Part shown: piece by piece, positions 4,935 through 33,483 of the stretch
How positions within the stretch are numbered: the first letter of the stretch is position 1
Layout of the letters: every line of letters begins with the position of its first letter
Assembly: GCA_016522385.1 (NCBI GenBank)
Contig: JAEKFU010000064.1
Location: 1 to 35,809 of the forward strand
Length of the DNA stretch: 35,809 nt
Direction: 5' to 3'
Source of the DNA: Pseudomonadota bacterium
GTDB lineage: Bacteria; Pseudomonadota; Alphaproteobacteria; Rhizobiales; Aestuariivirgaceae
Notes under the pieces: generated by a model
What the model saw: only the letters and a program-made list of their open reading frames with translations
The model's database searches: none
What the model was told of the DNA's origin: nothing
Position numbers and translations under genes: made by a program

Positions 4935-5435
4935 TTAGCCGCGCCAGTGCAAAACGCACACCAGCGTGAACAGCCGTCGGGCGGTATCGAAATCGACATG
5001 AACTTTGCCCTTCAGCCTTTCTTGAAGAATTTCACTGCCTTCATCATGCAAGCCCCGCCGCGCCATATCGATGGTCTCGATCTGGCTTGGCGTTGAAGTG
5101 CGGATCGCGTCAAAATAGCTCTCGCAGATCATGAAATAGTCTTTGACGATCCGCCGGAAAGGTGACAGCGCCAGCCCGATGATCGCGCAATCCTTGCCCG
5201 TGCGATCAGAGATACCGAACATCAGCCGGCCCTCGGTGATCGACAGGCGCAACTTGTAGGGCCCACTGTCGCGACCGACGACTTGAAACGAATTCTCCTG
5301 AAGCAGATCGAAGATTGCCACCTGCCGCTCATGCTCGACGTCTGCCGACGGCACCACAGCTAGGCTCGTGTCAAGCTGCACATCGATCAGCTTGGCGGTC
5401 GCATCGTTCAAAGTTTCATCAGTCGGCGCAGGCAT
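4935..5435 (-). CDS. UPF0262 family protein (alphaproteobacterial, function unknown)
   Basis: 166-aa ORF with the family hallmarks [66 protein letters not shown] and [16 protein letters not shown]. Confidence 0.8.
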
Positions 5436-5444
5436 GTAGCGGGA

Positions 5445-5584
5445 CTAAGGCCTGTGGACAATTAGTATTGCGGTGTTGGCGTAGCCTACTTTGTCTCTGG
5501 CTGGCTTTTGGTGGTGCGGCAGGGCCAACCCCTTCAAGCCGCTCACAGTACCGTTCAATGGCGACATGGGCCGCATCCTTTCTG
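5445..5584 (-). repeat. copy A of a ~140-nt intergenic repeat element (paralogue of 17924-18062)
   Basis: The reverse complement of 5445-5583 aligns without gaps to 17924-18062, with 99/139 identical positions by hand count. The most conserved block is CTAATTG[T/C]CCACAGGCC. The element ends 9 nt upstream of the UPF0262 ATG and is co-oriented with it. Confidence 0.75.
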
Positions 5585-5694
5585 TCAAAGTTGCTCAAAT
5601 TTCATCTCCGTCAAAGCCATTACTAACTCTGGAACAGGCACCCAATCTGACCCGAACCTACCAAACCAGCGCCACAACCCTGATTATCCACACC

Positions 5695-6990
5695 CTAGGA
5701 CAGGTTCAATCGGATGGCGACCGACCTGGCATGGGCGTCAAGGCCCTCCGCGCGGCCGAGCGTCACTGCTGCCGGGCCGACTTTTCTCAGTGCGTCTGGC
5801 GAGCATTTTAGGATCGATGTGCGCTTCATGAAATCGAGAACGTTGAGACCTGACGAGAACCGCGCGCTGCGCGCCGTCGGCAACACATGATTGGGTCCAC
5901 CGACATAATCACCGACCGCCTCCGGCGTATAGGCGCCAATGAAAATGGCGCCGGCATTTCGCACTCGCCGGCTCAGGTCTTCCGCATTCTCCGTAGCGAC
6001 TTCAAGATGCTCCGGCGCCAGCTTGTCGACCAGCGGCAGAGCCTCATTGAAATCCGATACAATTATGATGGCGCCGAAATCACGCCAGCTGGACCCAGCG
6101 ATATCCGCCTTCGGCAGGGATTTCAGCTGGCTCTGGACAGCCGCCTCGACTGCTTCAGCAAAACTCTCATCGTTGGTAATCAGGATCGATTGCGCGCTGG
6201 TATCATGTTCCGCCTGGGCCAACAGATCCGCTGCAATCCAACTCGGGTCATTGGCGGCATCGGCCAGGATCAGCACTTCGGAAGGCCCGGCAATCATGTC
6301 GATGCCAACCGTGCCGAAGACTTGTCGCTTGGCCGCCGCCACATAGGCATTGCCCGGTCCGACAATCTTGGCAACAGGGGCAATCGTGCCGGTGCCATAT
6401 GCCAACGCAGCCACTGCCTGTGCGCCGCCAATCCGGTAGATTTCCGAAACGCCGGCGATCTTCGCTGCTGACAACACTTGGGCATTGACGATACCATCGG
6501 GCGTCGGGACAACCATCACCAGCCGTTCGACGCCGGCCACTTTGGCCGGTATCGCATTCATCAAGACCGACGACGGATAGGCCGCCAGTCCACCGGGCAC
6601 ATAAAGACCAACTGCCTCGACCGCTGTCCAGCGGTGTCCGAGCTCAACCCCACTGTCGTCGGTATAGCGTTCGGCGTCGGGTAGTTGACGCTGATGGTAG
6701 GCGGTAATCCGTTCCGCTGCCAGTTCCAGCGCGCCGCGCACGTCGTCCGGGCATTCGGTTTCAGCCGCACGGATCTCTAAATCTGAAAACTGCAAATTCT
6801 CGACAGTTGGCGCATATCGGTCAAACTTCTCTGTTAGTTCGACAAGTGCCGTGTCGCCGCGTGTGCGCACATCGGCAATGATCTCAGCGACTGCCGAATT
6901 GACGTCCGCCGCGCCCTCGCGCTTCATTGTCAGCAGCACGCCAAACTGTTCGCCAAAGTCGGCAGTTGCCGTATTCAGCCATTGCGCCAT
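5695..6990 (-). CDS. hisD: histidinol dehydrogenase
   Basis: The ORF 5695..7098 carries HisD blocks (GLYVPGG.AAYPSSVLMN, VGIDMIAGPSEVLILAD, AQAEHD, APEHLE, GDYVGGPNHVLPT). I place the start at the internal ATG at 6990 (MAQWLNTATADF...). That gives about 431 aa and removes the overlap with the upstream DUF2948 gene, whose stop is at 6998-7000. Confidence 0.95.
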   Translation of the reverse strand: MAQWLNTATADFGEQFGVLLTMKREGAADVNSAVAEIIADVRTRGDTALVELTEKFDRYAPTVENLQFSDLEIRAAETECPDDVRGALELAAERITAYHQRQLPDAERYTDDSGVELGHRWTAVEAVGLYVPGGLAAYPSSVLMNAIPAKVAGVERLVMVVPTPDGIVNAQVLSAAKIAGVSEIYRIGGAQAVAALAYGTGTIAPVAKIVGPGNAYVAAAKRQVFGTVGIDMIAGPSEVLILADAANDPSWIAADLLAQAEHDTSAQSILITNDESFAEAVEAAVQSQLKSLPKADIAGSSWRDFGAIIIVSDFNEALPLVDKLAPEHLEVATENAEDLSRRVRNAGAIFIGAYTPEAVGDYVGGPNHVLPTARSARFSSGLNVLDFMKRTSILKCSPDALRKVGPAAVTLGRAEGLDAHARSVAIRLNLS

Positions 6991-6997
6991 GTTTTGC

Positions 6998-7435
6998 TCA
7001 CTCGCCGTGATCGGGAATATTTGCGGTTTCCCACATGGGACCGAGATCTTCAAGGCTGGCCTCGATACATTCGACGCCAAGTCGGATGATGCCGCCACCG
7101 GAGAATGTCAGATCAATCGATCCAGCCGGCGCTTCATCCCCGGGTCGGAAAGCGATCGCCAATAGCGACAGGATTGCATCCTCGGCGCCTTGCCGGACCT
7201 TTTGCGATTGAACCGACGTCACCCGATTGAAATGCAAACCGCAACGTCTGCGCATGCCCGACCGTTTCGCCTGACCCGCCACGGTGCTCCAGTCGAATCG
7301 GTTGGCGACCAGCACGAACCGCTGTTCGCCGGCCAGGTAGCGGATGTCGCCGATGCGCAGAACAGCATCCTGCAACTGTGCCGAAATCACCGACAGGTCG
7401 TCCTCATCCAAAGCTGCTAGCTTCAACAGGTCCAT
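6998..7435 (-). CDS. DUF2948 family protein
   Basis: The ORF 6998..7450 probably starts at the ATG at 7435 (MDLLKLAALDEDDLSVISAQLQDAVLRIGDIRYL...). The sequence and the position between murA and hisD match the conserved alphaproteobacterial DUF2948 gene. Confidence 0.8.
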   Translation of the reverse strand: MDLLKLAALDEDDLSVISAQLQDAVLRIGDIRYLAGEQRFVLVANRFDWSTVAGQAKRSGMRRRCGLHFNRVTSVQSQKVRQGAEDAILSLLAIAFRPGDEAPAGSIDLTFSGGGIIRLGVECIEASLEDLGPMWETANIPDHGE

Positions 7436-12725: not shown

Positions 12726-14213
12726 ATGGGGACTAAGCGTAAAATTGTTGTTGTCGGCGCCGGGCCGGGAGGATTGGCCGCGGCCATGCTGTTGGCGCAT
12801 CGTGGCTGCGATGTCACACTGCTCGAGGCACGCGCGACCGTCGGCGGACGTTCCGGCTACATACAGGAGCAGGGGTTCTGCTTCGATATTGGACCAACAT
12901 TCTTCCTCTTTCCCGAAGTGTTGCGGGAGATCTTTGCCGAAGTCGGCCGTGATCTCATGACCGAGGTACCCATGACCAAGATCGACCCTCTATACAGGGT
13001 CGCATTCGAAGGTGCTGGACACCTTGATGCTCGCGACGGTGTCGATGCCATGCGGGACGAGATTGCCCGATTGTCCGCGGAAGACGCGGCAAATCTTGAT
13101 TGTTTCATGCGCGACAACCGAAGAAAGATCGCCGACTTCAAGTCCGTTCTGCAGAACCCGTTTGACACGATATTCGACTACCTACGCCCTGGCGTTCTCT
13201 CAGCGCTGGGTAACCTGCGGCCGCATCGTAGTCTGGACGATGATCTAAAGCGGTTCTTCCGCGACGAACGCGTGAGACGAGCGTTTTCCTTCCAGTCGAA
13301 ATATCTTGGCATGTCGCCGTTCAACTGTCCCAGTCTGTTTACCATCCTCGCCTTCCTGGAGCATGAGTATGGTGTGTGGCACCCAACCGGCGGCTGCAAC
13401 ATGGTTATGCGCAAGATGGCTGAAATTGCTGGCCAACTGGGTGCTGATGTTCGCCTGTCCGAGCCGGTGACCGCCCTTGATTTTGAAGGCCGGCGGATTT
13501 CTGCAGTGAACACCGATCAGGCGCGCTATGAGGCCGACGCGGTGGTGATCAATGCCGACTTCGGAAAAGCCATGCAGAGCCTGGTGCCGGTCCATATGCG
13601 CAGGCGCTGGACCGACGACAAGATCGCCGGCAAGAAGTTTTCATGTTCGACATACATGCTGTATCTGGGTTTCAAGGGCGAGCTACCCGACATTCATCAT
13701 CACACGATATGCCTGGCAGACGACCTCGTTGCCAATGTTGATGAGATTCAGACCAGCATGGTACTGCCGAAGACACCGTCATTTTACGTCCAGAACGCCA
13801 GTGTGACTGACAAAACCCTGGCACCTGCTGGACACAGCACGCTCTATGTGCTTGTCCCCGTGCCGAATTGTGATGCTGAAATCGACTGGCAACGAGAAGC
13901 CGGGCCCTATCGCGAGCTGGTCCTCGATCGATTGTCACTCATTGGAATCAACGATATTCGTGATCGCATTGTCTTTGAGCGGATCCTGACACCGCAGCTC
14001 TGGCACCAGGACCATGGCATATTCAAAGGTGCGACGTTCAACATGAGCCACAACCTGTCGCAGATGCTCTATTTCCGGCCGCACAACCGGTTTGAAGACG
14101 TAAAAGGGTTATATCTCGTTGGCGGCGGCACGCATCCGGGCAGCGGATTGCCGGTAATCTTTGAGTCCGCGCGGATCTCCAGCCGGTTGATTTCGGATGA
14201 TCTGAACCTCTAA
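12726..14213 (+). CDS. phytoene/diapophytoene desaturase family enzyme (CrtI/CrtN type)
   Basis: 495-aa ORF. It has an N-terminal FAD fold (KIVVVGAGPGGLAAAMLLAHRGCDVTLLEA..VGGR), then GFCFDIGPTFF. The C-terminal CrtI signature is FRPHNRFEDVKGLYLVGGGTHPGSGLPVIFESARI. Confidence 0.85.
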   Translation: MGTKRKIVVVGAGPGGLAAAMLLAHRGCDVTLLEARATVGGRSGYIQEQGFCFDIGPTFFLFPEVLREIFAEVGRDLMTEVPMTKIDPLYRVAFEGAGHLDARDGVDAMRDEIARLSAEDAANLDCFMRDNRRKIADFKSVLQNPFDTIFDYLRPGVLSALGNLRPHRSLDDDLKRFFRDERVRRAFSFQSKYLGMSPFNCPSLFTILAFLEHEYGVWHPTGGCNMVMRKMAEIAGQLGADVRLSEPVTALDFEGRRISAVNTDQARYEADAVVINADFGKAMQSLVPVHMRRRWTDDKIAGKKFSCSTYMLYLGFKGELPDIHHHTICLADDLVANVDEIQTSMVLPKTPSFYVQNASVTDKTLAPAGHSTLYVLVPVPNCDAEIDWQREAGPYRELVLDRLSLIGINDIRDRIVFERILTPQLWHQDHGIFKGATFNMSHNLSQMLYFRPHNRFEDVKGLYLVGGGTHPGSGLPVIFESARISSRLISDDLNL

Positions 14214-14329
14214 AAGCAAGCTTAAGTGTCGAATTTTCCTAGGGCACAACGACGTAGGGATGGTTCCAAATGGCGTCATCTTGCTCTAAAAGCAAAAGTG
14301 AAATTCATTGCTGAGGGTGGACTGCTTCA

Positions 14330-15847
14330 ATGGGTAAGAGAGTTGCGGTTGTCGGCGCAGGTCTTGGTGGACTGACGGCAGCATGTACGCTGGCGGCCCG
14401 TGGTCATCAGGTTACACTGTTCGACAAGAATGACTGGGTTGGCGGCAAGGCAGCCGTTCTGGAACAGGATGGTTTTCGTTTCGACATGGGACCGACCATC
14501 CTGACCGTGCCACAGGTCTTGTTTCGGGTGTTTGGCGAAGCCGGTCGAAAGATTGAGGATTATCTCGATCTTGTCCGTCTGGATCCGCAATGGCGGTGCT
14601 TTTTTGAAGACGGTAGCATTCTCGATCTGCATGAAGATGTCGATGAAATGGCCCGCACGATCGACGAGTTCACCGGTAACACCGCGTCTGGAAAGGGATA
14701 CCGTGATTTCATCGCGTTTGCCGAACGCCTGCACCGCATATCCAACCGGTTCTTTTTCTGGAAAAGCGTTGAAGATCTTAAAGATACGATCGACATCAAG
14801 CAGAACATGACACTCGACACGCTATCTGATGTCATGGCACTGAAAATGGGTTCGTCAGTCGCCGGCACGATCCGCAAGAAAGTCCCGGACAAACGGGTGG
14901 CGCAGCTTCTCGACCACTTCGTTCAGTATGTTGGTTCATCGCCCTATCAGTCGCCGGCCGTGCTGTGCTCCATTGCCCACATGCAGACGGAACTTGGCGT
15001 CTGGTATCCAATCGGTGGGACTCGGGCCGTGCCGGTGGCACTGGAAAAGCTGGCCATTGAACTTGGCGTCAAGATCGAACTTAGTTGTGATGTCTGCAAA
15101 ATTGAACAGATCGACGGCGTGGTCAGTGCTGTAGTGATCGCCGACGGCAGGCGCGTTGAGTTCGACGCCGTGGTCTCCAATATGGATGCCATTCGCACCT
15201 ACAATGAGCTCATTGGTGGTGAAGCGGCAAAGCACTATGCCCGACAAAAATTCGAACCGGCCTGCTCGGGCGTTGTCCTTTACCTCGGCCTCAACAAGGC
15301 CTATGACCATCTCAAGCATCATTGTTTCGTCTTCTCGAGGGATCCCAAGGAAGAGTTCGATGCAATCTATGGACGCGGTGAACCCGCGCCCGACCCAACC
15401 TGCTATCTCGCCGCACCGAGCACCACTGAGCCGGCCGTTGCCCCAAAAGGTGGCGAGGCGCTCTATGTATTGGTCCACACCCCCTACTTGCGCGACCACC
15501 ACAACTGGAAGGATATGTTGCCCGGCTATCGCCAAGTCATTCTCGACAAGCTGAAGCGCACTGCTGGCATGACGGATATCGAGGACAGGATTGTCACCGA
15601 AGCCACACTGACGCCGCAGGACATTCATGAACGCTACAAGGTGCTGAACGGGGCGATTTACGGTCTGTGCAGCCATGGCAAGTTCACAGGCGCCTTCAAG
15701 CCCGGCAACCGTAGCCGTCATGTCAGGGGCCTTTACCTGAGCGGGGGCGCAGCGCATCCTGGACCCGGCATGCCAATGGTTATGATGTCGGGTTGGATTG
15801 CAGCCGATGCGTTCGACCAGGACCAGAAGCAGCGGGCAGCCGCCTAG
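14330..15847 (+). CDS. second CrtI-family FAD oxidoreductase (CrtD / CrtP-like end-group desaturase or oxygenase)
   Basis: 505-aa ORF containing VAVVGAGLGGLTAACTLAARGHQVTLFDKNDWVGGKA and GFRFDMGPTILT. The C-terminal GAIYGLCSHGKFTGAFKPGNRSRHVRGLYLSGGAAHPGPGMPMVMMSG resembles the CrtD/CrtP branch more than the CrtI branch. Confidence 0.8.
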   Translation: MGKRVAVVGAGLGGLTAACTLAARGHQVTLFDKNDWVGGKAAVLEQDGFRFDMGPTILTVPQVLFRVFGEAGRKIEDYLDLVRLDPQWRCFFEDGSILDLHEDVDEMARTIDEFTGNTASGKGYRDFIAFAERLHRISNRFFFWKSVEDLKDTIDIKQNMTLDTLSDVMALKMGSSVAGTIRKKVPDKRVAQLLDHFVQYVGSSPYQSPAVLCSIAHMQTELGVWYPIGGTRAVPVALEKLAIELGVKIELSCDVCKIEQIDGVVSAVVIADGRRVEFDAVVSNMDAIRTYNELIGGEAAKHYARQKFEPACSGVVLYLGLNKAYDHLKHHCFVFSRDPKEEFDAIYGRGEPAPDPTCYLAAPSTTEPAVAPKGGEALYVLVHTPYLRDHHNWKDMLPGYRQVILDKLKRTAGMTDIEDRIVTEATLTPQDIHERYKVLNGAIYGLCSHGKFTGAFKPGNRSRHVRGLYLSGGAAHPGPGMPMVMMSGWIAADAFDQDQKQRAAA

Positions 15848-15867
15848 TCGCGACGGGACGATCCGCC

Positions 15868-16668
15868 GTGACCCGTTCGGCTAAGCCGAAATCTCCGACA
15901 GAACTGTTCAGTGACCGGTTCTTCAGAGGTTTTTCGCGGTATGTCCGGTTTTTCTACGGCAGAAATTTCTCCGGCGTTCGTGTTCTCAACCCGGAGAACG
16001 CCGAAATACCGCCCGATCGTGCAGCCATCTTCTTTTGCAATCACAGCGCCTGGTGGGACGGCATCGTAATGCACTTGATGTCATCCACACTGATCGAGGG
16101 TCGCAAGCCATTCGCGCCTATGGATGAGGTCGCTCTCGAGCACTATGGCATTTTGAAGCGTGTCGGGATGTTCGGCGTCGAACAGGACACGCCACGCGGC
16201 GCGGCGCACTTTCTGAAAATCTCGCGCGGTCTGTTGCAGCGCACCGATACGGTCCTTTGGATGACACCGCAAGGTGGCTTCTTTGATCCCAGGGTTCGGC
16301 CGATCAGTTTCAAGCCAGGTCTCGCCCATTTGGCACGCGACCGGAATGCGATCCTGGTACCGGTGGCAATGGAGTATCCGTTCTGGGAAGAGCGTAGACC
16401 CGAAGCGCTGTTCAATTTTGGCAACCCCATAGATTCCGCTGCCTCGAAGCAACGTCCAGTAGATGCCTGGAACACGATGCTCGAGAACCGGCTGAGTAAA
16501 ACAATGGACGACCTGGCGTCGGCTGCGATCGACCGCAAACCGGAAGCCTTTAAGACCCTGATTGCAGGCTCCGCCGGCATCAATCCGTTCTATGATGCCT
16601 GGCAATTCGTCAAGGCCATCGCGACCGGTAAAAAATTCTCGCGCAGGCATCGGGATGTTTCAACGTGA
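15868..16668 (+). CDS. PlsC-type (lysophospholipid) acyltransferase family protein
   Basis: An HX4D acyltransferase motif is present (FFCNHSAWWDG). The longest ORF starts at TTG 15793, which is 55 nt inside the upstream gene. I prefer the in-frame GTG at 15868, 21 nt after the upstream TAG and preceded by GGGACG. The start remains uncertain. Confidence 0.7.
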   Translation: MTRSAKPKSPTELFSDRFFRGFSRYVRFFYGRNFSGVRVLNPENAEIPPDRAAIFFCNHSAWWDGIVMHLMSSTLIEGRKPFAPMDEVALEHYGILKRVGMFGVEQDTPRGAAHFLKISRGLLQRTDTVLWMTPQGGFFDPRVRPISFKPGLAHLARDRNAILVPVAMEYPFWEERRPEALFNFGNPIDSAASKQRPVDAWNTMLENRLSKTMDDLASAAIDRKPEAFKTLIAGSAGINPFYDAWQFVKAIATGKKFSRRHRDVST

Positions 16669-17792
16669 TCGATGCGCTTCTTGTCGTTTGCCTTGTCCTG
16701 GCGCTGGTCCCGTTCGGCCTGGCACTGATCAATCTGATGTTCTACCGGCCTTTGCCAACGACTGACACGGCTAACTTGCCGGCATTGAGCGTTCTGATTC
16801 CAGCGCGCAACGAACAAGACAGGATTGCGCCGGTACTGGAGGCTCTGACCCGCAACATATACGCTGATGCCGAGATCATCGTCGGCGACGACGGTTCGAC
16901 GGACAGAACCGTTGCAGTCGTCGATGAATTTTCCAAGCGGGACAATCGTATTCGGTCAATTCCGGTGTCGCCGGGAGACGACGATGGATGGGCCGGCAAG
17001 AACAATGCCTGTTATCGCCTAGCCAAAGCGGCCGAACATGACGTTCTGATCTTTCTCGATGCTGACGTAACCATCGCCGATGACGGTCTTGCGCGGCTCG
17101 CGGCGGCTGTCTCTCGCAAGCCGGATGTGGCCTTGCTGAGCGGCTTTCCGCAACAGATCGCCCTGTCGTTTTGGGAAAAGTTGCTAATTCCGCTGATTCA
17201 CTTTCTGCTGCTTGGTTATCTGCCTTTTCTCGGCGTCCGCTTTACCCGTCACCCGATGTTCGGCACAGCATGTGGGCAATTGATTGTGGTCACCAGGCCG
17301 GCCTATTTTGCGGTTGACGGCCATGCGTCCTTCAGATCGCTTCTGCATGACGGTCTGCACCTGCCACGCAAGCTTCGCGCGGCCGGCTTAAAGACCGACC
17401 TGGCCGACTTTACCAATCTGGCCAGCACCCGCATGTACGACAATGTTGAAGACCTTCGCGTCGGTCTGATGAAGAATGCTCATGAAGCCATGGCGACCCC
17501 AATCGCTCTGCCAATTTGGACAATCATATTGCTTTTTGGTCAGGTCTTGCCGGCAGCAATTCTGCTGGCGCTGCTTTTAGCCGGTGGGCCGACGGATGCA
17601 ATTGTCTATGCCGGACTTGTCACAGTGCTGGCATTTGGGTTACGCGGGCTGTTGGCAATAAGGTTTCGGCAATCGTGGTTGGGGGTTGTTTTGCATCCTT
17701 TCGGAATACTCGCATTACTGCAACTGCAATGGCGCGCGCTCATGAACCGCCGGCGCGGCGTTAAAGTGAACTGGAAGGGGCGCGCGTACTAG
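16665..17792 (+). CDS. family-2 membrane glycosyltransferase (CrtQ / CruC-like architecture)
   Basis: 375-aa ORF with an N-terminal TM segment and a GT2 core (SVLIPARNEQDRI...IVGDDGSTDRT...FLDADV), followed by several C-terminal TM segments. The GTG start overlaps the acyltransferase stop (GTGA at 16665-16668). Confidence 0.85.
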   Translation: MIDALLVVCLVLALVPFGLALINLMFYRPLPTTDTANLPALSVLIPARNEQDRIAPVLEALTRNIYADAEIIVGDDGSTDRTVAVVDEFSKRDNRIRSIPVSPGDDDGWAGKNNACYRLAKAAEHDVLIFLDADVTIADDGLARLAAAVSRKPDVALLSGFPQQIALSFWEKLLIPLIHFLLLGYLPFLGVRFTRHPMFGTACGQLIVVTRPAYFAVDGHASFRSLLHDGLHLPRKLRAAGLKTDLADFTNLASTRMYDNVEDLRVGLMKNAHEAMATPIALPIWTIILLFGQVLPAAILLALLLAGGPTDAIVYAGLVTVLAFGLRGLLAIRFRQSWLGVVLHPFGILALLQLQWRALMNRRRGVKVNWKGRAY

Positions 17793-17923
17793 GGCAAGCG
17801 AGCAACCGGGGTTGGGGCGCCGGTTGACAGGATTGGAACAGACACTTGGGGCGTGAGGATAATGGACGTGCTGGCATATTCGAAGACGAACACCTGTGAA
17901 GACGGGCCAGTCCGTTCAAGTTC

Positions 17924-18062
17924 CGAAAAGACGTGGCCCGTTTCGCACCTGGACGTCAATTTGAGCGACTTGAAAGGGATGGCTCTAGAGCACCACTCAA
18001 AGCTTGCCATGTACAATATGGGCTGCGCCAGGACTGCAACCCTAATTGCCCACAGGCCCTAA
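17924..18062 (+). repeat. copy B of the ~140-nt intergenic repeat element (paralogue of 5445-5584)
   Basis: See copy A. The alignment is ungapped with 99/139 identical positions. The element ends with TAA at 18060-18062, directly abutting the ATG of the ABC ATPase at 18063. Confidence 0.75.
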
Positions 18063-18998
18063 ATGCACGACGATCCGGCAGTCAGTGTTAGCGGCCTGTT
18101 TAAGTCCTATGCCGGTGTACCGGCAGTACGCGGCATTTCGTTTGACATCGCCCCTGGCGAGACATTCGCCCTGCTTGGCCCAAACGGCGCGGGCAAAACG
18201 TCGACGATCGAAATCCTCGAAGGTTATCGAAAACGGACTGCCGGCCATGTTAATGTCCTCGGCTTTGATCCAGGTGAAAATTGCCGCGAATTTCGCGAAT
18301 GCATTGGCCTTGTCCTGCAATCGACCGCCTTGGAGCCAGAGCTGACGGTAATTGAGACCGTTACCGCATTCTCGCAATTCTATCCTGAGCCGCTGCGTGT
18401 AGAGGGATTACTGAAAACTGTCGGACTCGCCGATCGCCGCGACAACCGCGTTAGGACACTATCGGGCGGTCAGCAACGGCGTCTGGAGATAGCTCTTGGC
18501 CTCATTGGCAACCCTGAAGTCGTTTTTCTGGACGAGCCAACCACCGGTCTCGACCCAGACGCCCGCGCCGGTGTCTGGCACTTGATCCGCAAACTTTCCC
18601 AAAAAGGCAAGACCGTCATACTGTCTTCGCATCACATGGAAGAGGTCGAGGCCTTGGCGCATCGCCTGGCCATCCTGGTGGCCGGAAAAATCTGTGCATC
18701 CGGCACTGTGGCCGACCTGTTGCATGAATTCGGCGGTCATTCCCGCTTCAGCTTCTGGTGGCCGTTTGATCAGCTCCCCTACAATCTGCCTCCAGCGCTT
18801 GGCAGCCTGCATCACGGTCATGACAACTGGGTTAGCTTTTCGGTCGCCGAACCCGGCAAGGCCCTGGTGCAACTCACCGGCTGGGCCCATCATTACGGTG
18901 TAAATCTGGATTCACTGACGATTACCAAGCCAACCCTTGAGGACATCTATTTGTCTCTGACCGGCGCGCGCCAAAAATCGGGCGGGCCGGACCGGTGA
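18063..18998 (+). CDS. ABC transporter ATP-binding protein (ABC-2 / DrrA-type exporter ATPase)
   Basis: 311-aa ORF with Walker A (GPNGAGKTS), Q-loop, ABC signature (LSGGQQRRL), Walker B (VVFLDEPTTGLD) and H-loop (SSHHMEE). Confidence 0.9.
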   Translation: MHDDPAVSVSGLFKSYAGVPAVRGISFDIAPGETFALLGPNGAGKTSTIEILEGYRKRTAGHVNVLGFDPGENCREFRECIGLVLQSTALEPELTVIETVTAFSQFYPEPLRVEGLLKTVGLADRRDNRVRTLSGGQQRRLEIALGLIGNPEVVFLDEPTTGLDPDARAGVWHLIRKLSQKGKTVILSSHHMEEVEALAHRLAILVAGKICASGTVADLLHEFGGHSRFSFWWPFDQLPYNLPPALGSLHHGHDNWVSFSVAEPGKALVQLTGWAHHYGVNLDSLTITKPTLEDIYLSLTGARQKSGGPDR

Positions 18999-19783
18999 TG
19001 CTGGTGAAACAAATACAATACCAATTGATGCTGTTCTTCAGACGGCCCGCCGCGCTGTTCTTCGTCATAGTCATGCCGGTGGTGCTGCTCGCCCTGCTCA
19101 CCCAGATACTGGGCAATGATCCTATACCCGGTCAGACGACGACGTCGGCACAGTTCTATACGCCGGCTCTTGCTGTCTTCGGTGTCGTCACGGCCTGTTT
19201 CACCTATCTGGCCGTTTCCACAGCAACGTCGCGCGATCAGGGTATCCTCAAACGCATCCGCGGCACGCCCTTGCCGCCGTCGGTCTACATGACGGCAAGG
19301 ATTATCTCAGTCACTGTCATCGCCCTTATATCCGCGGCCCTCGTCATCGCGTCAGGCGTGATCTTTCTTGATGTCGAAATGCAATGGGATAAGGCCGTCG
19401 CCGGTCTGTTCATTCTTGTCACCGGAGGCCTCAGCTTTGCCGCGCTCGGCATGATGGTCGTGGCCTTGTGCCGGTCGAGCGAAACCGTTCAGGCGGTTGT
19501 CAACGCCACATTGCTGCCGCTCGCCTTCCTGTCGGAGATCTTCATCCGCCCGGGCCGCGAGTTGCCGGACTGGATGATCTGGACAGCAGATTTCTTTCCG
19601 CTAAAGCATTTCAGTGTCGCCCTTGGCAACGCCTTTAAACCCTCGCTTGAGGGGTATGGCTTTACCTGGACGGATGCAGATGACGCGTTCAGCGTTTTGC
19701 CCGAATTCCTTATTCTGCTCGCATGGGGTCTGTTTGCTGGCGTGATCGCGGTTCGATTCTTCAAATGGGATGTCAGGTTGTGA
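18995..19783 (+). CDS. ABC-2 type transporter permease
   Basis: 262-aa ORF with about 6 hydrophobic segments. The start (GTG 18995 or ATG 18998) overlaps the ATPase stop (GTGATG). Confidence 0.85.
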   Translation: MMLVKQIQYQLMLFFRRPAALFFVIVMPVVLLALLTQILGNDPIPGQTTTSAQFYTPALAVFGVVTACFTYLAVSTATSRDQGILKRIRGTPLPPSVYMTARIISVTVIALISAALVIASGVIFLDVEMQWDKAVAGLFILVTGGLSFAALGMMVVALCRSSETVQAVVNATLLPLAFLSEIFIRPGRELPDWMIWTADFFPLKHFSVALGNAFKPSLEGYGFTWTDADDAFSVLPEFLILLAWGLFAGVIAVRFFKWDVRL

Positions 19784-21881: not shown

Positions 21882-21956
<75 letters not shown>

Positions 21957-33406: not shown

Positions 33407-33483
33407 GCCGCCTTAGCTCAGTTGGTTAGAGCGCTGGATTGTGGATCCAGAGGTCCCCTGTTCGAGCCAGGGAGGCGGTACCA
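33407..33483 (+). tRNA. tRNA-His (anticodon GUG), no encoded G-1
   Basis: A 77-nt cloverleaf can be folded. The acceptor stem is GCCGCCU/AGGCGGU (G1:U72), the D arm GCUC-AGUUGGUUA-GAGC, the anticodon arm CUGGA-UUGUGGA-UCCAG, the variable loop AGGUC and the T arm CCCUG-UUCGAGC-CAGGG. Discriminator A73 and CCA are encoded. Position -1 is A. Confidence 0.95.

Follow-up and report, generated by a model that had tools for sequence, protein, structure and literature searches.

Two intergenic stretches of about 140 nt, alike in sequence and each placed just ahead of a gene, occur in contig JAEKFU010000064.1 of an alphaproteobacterium of the order Rhizobiales (Hyphomicrobiales), placed near Aestuariivirgaceae, a piece of DNA of 35,809 nt that is analyzed here in full and referred to as the window. 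One stretch lies at positions 17924-18062 on the forward strand (copy B) and the other at positions 5445-5583 on the reverse strand (copy A). The question raised by this locus is whether such a pair represents a regulatory element shared by two genes, a small gene, or a dispersed repeat. The analysis indicates that both stretches are very probably the better-kept halves of two copies, now decayed, of a non-autonomous transposon of ~268 nt, a MITE (miniature inverted-repeat transposable element), each copy lying on the TA within a stop codon. In kind the finding is ordinary, and its unusual side is the pattern of orientation and start-codon proximity displayed by the family.

The resemblance of the two stretches is far beyond chance and marks a real repeat. 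Direct alignment of 17924-18062(+) with the reverse complement of 5445-5583 gave 99 identical positions out of 139 with no gap, which reproduces the pair described in an initial annotation of the sequence. A repeat scan of the window listed the pair as inverted, with a length of 137 nt and 72% identity, the next-longest inverted pair being only 41 nt long. In addition, the two best-conserved 21-mers each occurred exactly twice in the window and were absent from 100 shuffles. The junctions had also been read correctly, as copy B ends in TAA followed directly by an ATG, while copy A ends 9 nt before the ATG of a gene for a UPF0262 protein.

The flanks outside the 139 nt had been considered unrelated, which was found to be wrong, since homology continues in the 5' direction with a few indels as far as the stop codon of the upstream gene. 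This extension followed from locus L024, where the terminal motif is present at both ends, in inverted orientation and 250 nt apart, and where the intact copy matches copy B with 77% identity over 254 nt. The extent was tested with a profile of 274 model positions built only from copies outside the window. It aligned copy B from 17790 to 18061 (model positions 2-273, E 3.3e-55) and copy A from 5694 to 5446 (model positions 5-273, E 4e-38), and no third copy was found with it in the 35.8-kb window. The elements take up the whole of both spacers, between the upstream gene's stop codon and the next gene's start region, and the 139-nt span is the 3', least decayed half of each element. The coordinates of the two copies, their parts and their neighbors are collected in Table 1.

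The wider family was recovered from several collections. The 3' core CTAATTGYCCACAGGCC (a 17-mer) was scanned over one genome per species and gave 95 matches, against an estimated ~140 expected by chance. Despite this chance-level total, there are clusters of matches in Alphaproteobacteria, and further use was restricted to loci that had profile homology or a second, inverted end. Outside the window, 11 copies bounded by terminal inverted repeats (TIRs) were obtained, L024 included, with lengths of 264-285 nt and hosts comprising Roseospira marina, Roseibium sediminicola, Hellea, Robiginitomaculum, Kiloniellaceae, Rhodospirillaceae and Rhizobiaceae. Five further copies were identified in metagenomes with a pattern on the terminal end; a metagenome search combining an internal motif with the end pattern gave no matches, and neither did a blastn search of the PLSDB plasmids with the intact element. 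The copies adjoin unrelated genes in many genomes, and the family is widespread in Alphaproteobacteria. A relative, ERZ25072999 ctg322018, carries at least 3 of them. As far as the literature was searched, in a library that is incomplete, the family is previously unnamed: searches covering its end sequence and MITEs with translational coupling or an IS427 origin gave no description of it.

The intact element measures ~265-268 nt and lacks a transposase; its only open reading frame (ORF) has 64 codons and no Pfam match. All TIR-bounded copies start with GGGCCTGTGGACAATTAG and end with its reverse complement. The terminal pairing reaches ~32 bp, and lineage-specific substitutions at one end are mirrored at the other. 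The flanks have the form Y-TA...TA-R in 18 of 23 copies as scored, or in 19 of 23 once the coordinate of L098 is corrected, and both window copies are among them. MITEs are usually recognized by small size, terminal repeats, direct repeats, absence of a transposase and ends resembling those of an insertion sequence (IS) (PMC11578231; PMC2229807). By these criteria, the small size, TIRs, TA direct repeats, missing transposase and IS-like ends of the element identify it as a MITE. Of the options that the initial annotation had left side by side, the REP/MITE-like dispersed repeat is thus the one that stood.

The likely parent of the element was traced through its ends. The terminal 21-24 nt are the same as the ends of a full-length, two-ORF IS of ~840 bp that belongs to the IS427 type of the IS5 family, found in Sphingobium and at L064, L050 and L062. 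Contig ends in Sphingobium sp. AS12 and S. terrigena show the exact copy A 21-mer on the orfA-proximal side, with the first 16 orfA residues after it. At L064, L050 and L062 the same end adjoins the C-terminus of orfB, and L064 carries the exact copy A 21-mer there. In the ~840-bp IS of S. baderi plasmid pDE3 (L096, 2279-3121), orfA encodes a DUF4096 protein (E 4e-28) and orfB a DDE_Tnp_1 protein (E 9e-11). Members of the IS427 group are ~830-865 bp long, with two ORFs and 2-bp direct repeats (PMC3281130), and IS711, one of them, duplicates TA at YTAR (PMC3163539). The group, which also includes IS1248/ISPpa2 of Paracoccus besides IS711 of Brucella, is herein taken as the autonomous partner. 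It shares the terminal 21-24 nt and the TA at YTAR with the element, but is ~840 bp long with a transposase, compared with 268 nt without one. The element also differs from the IS427-type IS in its ~32-bp terminal pairing and in an interior of two long hairpins with no detected homology to the IS interior.

The start codon of the element lies 74-77 nt from its end, and that of orfA at position 73 of the IS. From the ends and this matching start position we infer an origin by internal deletion of an IS427-type IS. The Shine-Dalgarno (SD) sequence and start codon of the element, which stand where orfA starts, would then most simply be relics of the transposase gene. The IS transposase has its stop codon within the terminal repeat (TAA at -14), whereas in most copies of the element the frame is shifted by one and its stop falls on the duplicated TA. 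The C-terminus of the relic frame (SKLARNEMG...) looks similar to the transposase motif RYDK(L/T)A, but the nucleotide sequences align unconvincingly and no claim is made from it. As a separate observation, contigs of Sphingobium sp. AS12 (L005, L011, L029, L031, L058, L063, L080, L084, L090, L092) and S. terrigena (L046, L061) end ~105-127 nt inside the same IS427-type IS, which is multicopy in these strains and breaks up their assemblies.

Insertion on stop codons follows a simple rule. The target contains TA and the element starts with G, so that insertion into a TAA or TAG stop codon regenerates TAG and leaves the upstream protein unharmed. The upstream stop is composed of the duplicated TA and the G of the element in both window copies and at L015 (on both sides), L018, L038, L052, L086, L108 and L112. 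In GC-rich genomes, stop codons make up many of the YTAR sites at which an insertion does no harm. This part of the account can be read straight from the sequences, and the family illustrates how a TA-targeting, G-starting element can use them as safe landing sites. At L015 (2355-2624) the element lies between convergent genes, both stop codons consist of the duplicated TA and a terminal G of the element, and before the insertion the two genes shared a single TA in overlapping stop codons.

The site of copy B before insertion can be reconstructed. The metagenomic relative L114 carries the same gene order (amine oxidase, acyltransferase, family-2 glycosyltransferase (GT2), ABC ATPase and ABC-2 permease), with proteins that are 67-68% identical. 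In L114 the stop codon of the GT2 gene and the start codon of the ABC ATPase gene overlap, with zero spacer, which represents an empty site for copy B. Furthermore, in silico deletion of copy B together with one TA restores GCG TAC TAA ATG, in which the stop abuts the start. The empty site and the restored junction together show copy B to be an insertion into a tightly coupled gene junction. A TAA-ATG junction like that of copy B is also present at L052, between two unrelated ABC permease genes. An orthologous insertion between GT2 and ABC ATPase genes was considered for this locus and rejected, as its flanking proteins are unrelated, and L052 therefore represents an independent insertion. For copy A, the hisD stop lies at the same codon position in four relatives, whose hisD-UPF0262 spacers are free of the element; one of these relatives, the metagenome-assembled genome GCA_013002595.1, carries a copy elsewhere.

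Taken as a process, an IS427-type transposase supplied in trans would move the element, which lands on the TA of YTAR and turns a hit TAA or TAG stop back into TAG through its leading G. Copy B split the junction of the GT2 stop and the ABC ATPase start, and copy A sits on the hisD stop. Both copies lie in sense orientation inside operons and are presumably transcribed within the operon mRNA.

Several results weigh against this account. The TIRs of the window copies, taken alone, are marginal, as the end alignment score was reached by 184 of 2000 shuffles for copy B and by 45 of 2000 for copy A; identification as a MITE consequently rests on homology to intact copies. Beyond the TIRs, the interior of the element aligned with the left end of the Sphingobium IS with a score within ~1 standard deviation of shuffles. 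A tblastn search of the 35.8-kb window, to which it was confined, revealed no transposase gene. No exact empty site for copy A was found in the four relatives, in which the spacers are unrelated and 63-143 nt long, compared with 9 nt predicted. Moreover, purely neutral insertion leaves the orientation and start-codon proximity described below unexplained.

The family shares a predicted RNA fold, which also provides a measure of decay. RNAalifold, applied to ten copies of the subfamily to which the window copies belong, predicted a terminal stem (columns 3-35 with 247-279), a hairpin I (36-84 with 89-135) with the SD and start site inside it, a small hairpin, and a hairpin II (147-167 with 226-246) with an additional inner stem. 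Of the 99 predicted pairs, 31 display compensatory changes. Paired cells amount to 92.8%, compared with 36-41% in controls whose partners were shifted by 1-3 columns, and the observed covariation was reached in none of 500 shuffles. The earlier statement that no convincing conserved helix exists does not survive this covarying fold. Eight copies outside the window keep 28-32 of the 32 terminal-stem pairs (31-32 in seven of them), 33-36 of 36 pairs in hairpin I and 17-18 of 18 in hairpin II. The corresponding values are 23, 26 and 15 for copy B and 25, 18 and 14 for copy A. Likewise, the fold energies of the window copies are -101 and -91.5 kcal/mol, compared with -157 to -192 kcal/mol in the eight others. 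In copy A the SD and start region is destroyed, with 26% identity to the consensus and deletions in hairpin I. The loss of a quarter to half of the pairs and the weaker folds mark the window copies as relics, which most likely are no longer able to move.

Some features of the fold may reflect the RNA rather than the DNA. In eight of the ten copies folding favors the sense over the antisense strand, by 10-23 kcal/mol in seven, and G.U cells outnumber A.C cells in hairpin I (42 vs 6) and are matched by them in the terminal stem (13 vs 14). This strand asymmetry hints at an RNA-level constraint, although it and the G.U/A.C counts are partly built in, as the structure was predicted on the sense strand.

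Variants of the element provide side observations on its structure. At L115 (1560-1673), the small hairpin separating hairpins I and II carries in its loop an insert of ~114 nt made up of two palindromes, GATCACGATGACTTTGGATTG...CAATCCAAAGTCATGAACGTGATC and GAGCTGGACG...CGTCCAGCTC. The same insert is present in the ORF variants P0151, P0153, P0160, P0161, P0164, P0167, P0171 and P0173, in which the relic ORF becomes 101-102 codons long, and it looks like a second small repeat nested in the MITE. At L101 (4166-4339), a ~170-nt derivative has the same TIRs and hairpin I and has lost hairpin II. Shorter TIR pairs of 60-190 nt were found at L077 (1004-1190), L067 (7159-7315), L081 (1721-1877) and L093 (1391-1452), and all five loci may hold smaller deletion derivatives of the same family.

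The reading frame within the element calls for separate consideration. The observation that one frame is open through both window copies and stops in the same alignment column holds, and a recount agrees with the distribution of mismatches over codon positions 1/2/3 (10/14/16). In intact copies, GAGGAGGAAGGAC-ATG opens a frame that is exactly 64 codons long and has its stop on the right-hand TA(A/G), and the frame of copy B is homologous to it. A family of small-protein genes, whose products of ~64 residues (MLAYSTTN...TLIVHRP) are made from their own ribosome-binding site, would account for the 59 clusters of this ORF in the protein collection, of which ~45 have exactly 64 residues; the names of the cluster members carried no taxonomy. 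It would also fit the strong GGAGG 7 nt before the ATG of intact copies, and the fact that 8 of 10 copies found by TIRs alone keep the frame open as far as the terminal stop. The sequences do not evolve as such genes would, as the median dN/dS is 1.04 over 21 pairs and variable sites fall 23/27/24 on codon positions 1/2/3. Furthermore, the middle of the L097-L099 copies is read in another frame and is still open, P0174, P0177 and P0179 are frameshifted, and copy A has lost its start region. The conserved "residues" fall on hairpin arms and the terminal repeat, and the absence of a Pfam match also counts against a gene. Openness itself was rejected as strong evidence of selection, as it is common under chance: the frame is open in 7-40% of dinucleotide shuffles (P 0.07-0.40 per copy), other frames are often open too, and in a simulated neutral descent with 41 random substitutions from the consensus copy B remained open with a probability of 0.35. 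The 64-codon frame encodes no constrained peptide, in agreement with the initial annotation, which had favored a non-coding element, and a small-protein gene family is very improbable. For annotation, hypothetical proteins of 64 residues of the type MLAYSTTN...LIVHRP are to be treated as MITE read-throughs and not as genes.

A shared 5' leader or a regulator-binding module common to both downstream genes had also been proposed, and such a leader could be a riboswitch or attenuator. The placement of both copies, co-oriented with and abutting the next gene, is what such an element would show, and the covarying fold with its better-folding sense strand would suit a leader RNA. The downstream genes of the family are unrelated in function and include those for ABC ATPase, UPF0262, apolipoprotein N-acyltransferase, glyoxalase, LysR, DUF502 and DMRL synthase proteins and sugar-ABC permeases. 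The Rfam comparison suggested earlier was run and gave no relevant match, either for the whole window at the gathering score or for both spacers at E values up to 10, where only a chance 17-nt snoRNA fragment outside the element appeared. TIRs identical to IS5-family ends, the TA duplication, the relative L114, which lacks any spacer where copy B stands in the window, and the pairs lost from the window copies all speak for a transposon instead, and a common leader or regulatory module is accordingly considered hardly credible. A different mobile origin is offered by REP/BIME/REPIN-type repeats (REP, repetitive extragenic palindromic), which are spread by a RAYT enzyme similar to IS200/IS605 transposases and not by a DDE transposase. 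Such repeats are often intergenic, palindromic, dispersed and orientation-biased, as is the element. They consist of pairs of 20-40-nt palindromes, whereas the element has ~268 nt with 32-bp TIRs, ends identical over 21-24 nt to those of a DDE-type IS5-family IS, and a TA duplication at YTAR, so that a REP-type origin is extremely improbable. For the window, the MITE interpretation removes a candidate regulatory RNA and a candidate small-protein gene and explains two ~260-nt spacers as transposon relics.

The distribution of copies relative to genes is strongly non-random. In the initial annotation, a functional reading was to fall if the element proved to be a repeat at random positions and orientations; the element is indeed a mobile repeat, whereas random placement is contradicted. 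The SD/start side or the profile served to orient each copy. Of the copies that lie between co-directional genes, all 14 point in the sense direction and none is antisense (both window copies, L008, L018, L024, L038, L052, L099, L107, L108, L109, L111, L112 and L113), an outcome with a probability of ~6e-5 under random orientation. At 12 sites the next start codon overlaps the terminal stop or follows it by no more than 9 nt, at distances of 0 nt (copy B, L052), 1 nt (L008, L099), 3 nt (L112, L113), 5 nt (L107), 8 nt (L108) and 9 nt (copy A, L109, L111), with an overlap at L110. Several of these sites now have their native ribosome-binding site ~270 nt away. Seven of these loci were found through a called ORF, which could enrich for young or intact copies and cannot bias orientation. 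In our reading, target choice (TA at stop codons and the AT-richer stretch before starts) explains part of the position, and selection against antisense copies explains the orientation.

A more specific, tentative possibility, which we regard as doubtful on balance, is that the element acts as a translational bridge, its SD and start, its unconstrained frame of ~64 codons and its TA-derived stop carrying ribosomes to the next start. Ribosomes would load at the SD of the element, translate the frame and terminate beside the downstream start, so that coupling would be kept and polarity avoided. Insertions inside operons would then be tolerated, even where two genes are coupled or where a gene would be parted from its ribosome-binding site, and in sense orientation only. 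Such a bridge would explain the 14 sense copies, the 12 start-proximal ends and the position of copy B on a former TAA-ATG junction. If the orientation bias does reflect a need for translation, the family would represent a mobile element that carries its own device against polar damage. Alternatively, the AGG in the terminal repeat (in the sequence CACAGGCCC) could possibly serve as a minimal SD; in copy B it stands 6 nt ahead of the ATG that follows. An outward promoter within the element may be a further alternative to the bridge. Simple scans for sigma-70 promoters and intrinsic terminators gave none in either spacer.

Comparison with known systems places the family among small bacterial repeats. 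Among eukaryotes, Tourist-type MITEs are likewise deletion-derived and non-autonomous; their partners are PIF/Harbinger transposases, distant relatives of IS5, and their target contains TA. They differ in a 3-bp TAA/TTA duplication and in having no operon context. In bacteria, the Correia/NEMIS elements of Neisseria, RUP of S. pneumoniae (partner IS630-Spn1) and ERIC/IRU of enterobacteria are small, with TIRs and 5'-TA-3' termini (PMC2229807). Their transcripts are highly base-paired and co-transcribed with neighbors, many have open frames, and the ends of RUP match an IS (PMC2229807). The element shares TIRs, TA termini and a base-paired (predicted) transcript with these families. It differs from them in length (~268 nt compared with 100-170 nt), in the family of its partner IS, and in a three-domain architecture of a terminal stem and two independent hairpins where the others form one long stem-loop. 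Its placement is also distinctive, being strictly sense between co-directional genes and often on stop codons or no more than 9 nt from starts; in the literature searched, no report of orientation and stop or start placement of this kind was found for Correia, RUP or ERIC.

Closer in taxonomy are Bru-RS1 and Bru-RS2 of Brucella and CIR of Caulobacter and Brucella, which, like the element, are intergenic palindromic repeats of Alphaproteobacteria, including the order of the window organism. Bru-RS is tied to the IS427 group in that IS711 inserts into it, and its units have 103-106 bp, compared with ~268 nt for the element, a comparison made by description only. The 5' and 3' halves of CIR fold independently and its termini are TA; it has no TIRs and is defined by a GANTC methylation site (PMC2229807). 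Identity with CIR was rejected, as the element has TIRs and no GANTC site was seen on reading the family consensus.

Table 1. Coordinates of the two MITE copies, their parts and the adjoining genes in the window. Copy A is described in the orientation of the element.
Feature	Positions	Strand	Remarks
Copy B, decayed MITE, full-length 268 nt	17792..18059	+	Profile E 3.3e-55; spacer between GT2 and ABC ATPase genes
Left TA of duplication, copy B	17790..17791		With G17792 forms the TAG stop of the GT2 gene; flanks cTA/GGGC...GGCCC/TAa
Left TIR, copy B, degenerate	17792..17823	+	64% to consensus; local alignment with right end 19/25
Hairpin I (predicted), copy B	17824..17920	+	Encloses SD-like GAGGA 17855-17859 and canonical start position GTG 17868-17870; 26/36 pairs kept
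Relic frame, copy B	17868..18062	+	GTG at canonical start to TAA; in-frame ATG 17862 and GTG 17853 upstream
Hairpin II (predicted), copy B	17932..18027	+	Outer stem 17932-17952 with 18007-18027, inner 17967-17994; 15/18 outer pairs; inside the 139-nt span
Right TIR, copy B	18028..18059	+	88% to consensus; left-end model matches reversed at 18061-18028; the best-conserved 3' block of the initial annotation
Right TA of duplication, copy B	18060..18061		TAA 18060-18062 ends the element frame and abuts ATG 18063 of the ABC ATPase
Copy A, decayed MITE, 248 nt	5448..5695	-	Profile E 4e-38; spacer between hisD and UPF0262 genes
Left TA of duplication, copy A	5696..5697		With G5695 forms the TAG stop of hisD; codon position as in relatives
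Left TIR, copy A, 3-nt deletion	5666..5695	-	76% to consensus; local alignment with right end 20/27
Relic frame, copy A, shortened	5445..5576	-	ATG 5576, 43 codons, stop TAG 5447-5445
Right TIR, copy A	5448..5479	-	Outer 18 nt plus flanking TAG form the 21-mer CTAATTGTCCACAGGCCTTAG (5465-5445), identical to full-length IS ends
Right TA of duplication, copy A	5446..5447		Relic frame closes with TAG 5447-5445; UPF0262 ATG (5435-5433) follows after 9 nt
Family-2 glycosyltransferase (GT2), upstream of copy B	16665..17792	+	Pfam PF00535, E 1e-22; 68% to same-position gene in L114
ABC ATPase of ABC-2 exporter, downstream of copy B	18063..18998	+	Pfam PF00005; 67% to P0181 in L114
Histidinol dehydrogenase (hisD), upstream of copy A	5695..7098	-	Pfam PF00815, E 1.5e-169; longest ORF
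UPF0262 protein, downstream of copy A	4935..5435	-	Pfam PF06793, E 3e-70

Some further observations concern the neighboring genes. The longest ORF of hisD has 467 codons from a GTG, compared with 431 residues in relatives, and the true start probably lies ~36 codons further in. A look-up of the ABC ATPase as an exact protein gave no record. The region 12726-19783 comprises an amine oxidase/desaturase-like gene (14330-15847), an acyltransferase gene (15793-16668), the GT2 gene (16665-17792) and the ABC-2 exporter genes (18063-19783), an order that is kept in L114. It resembles a cluster for synthesis and export of a carotenoid or another glycolipid, in which the MITE of copy B parts the synthesis genes from the exporter genes. 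Two tRNA genes of the window, at 21882-21953 and 33407-33480 (Rfam tRNA, 73.5 and 66.8 bits), are unrelated to the element.

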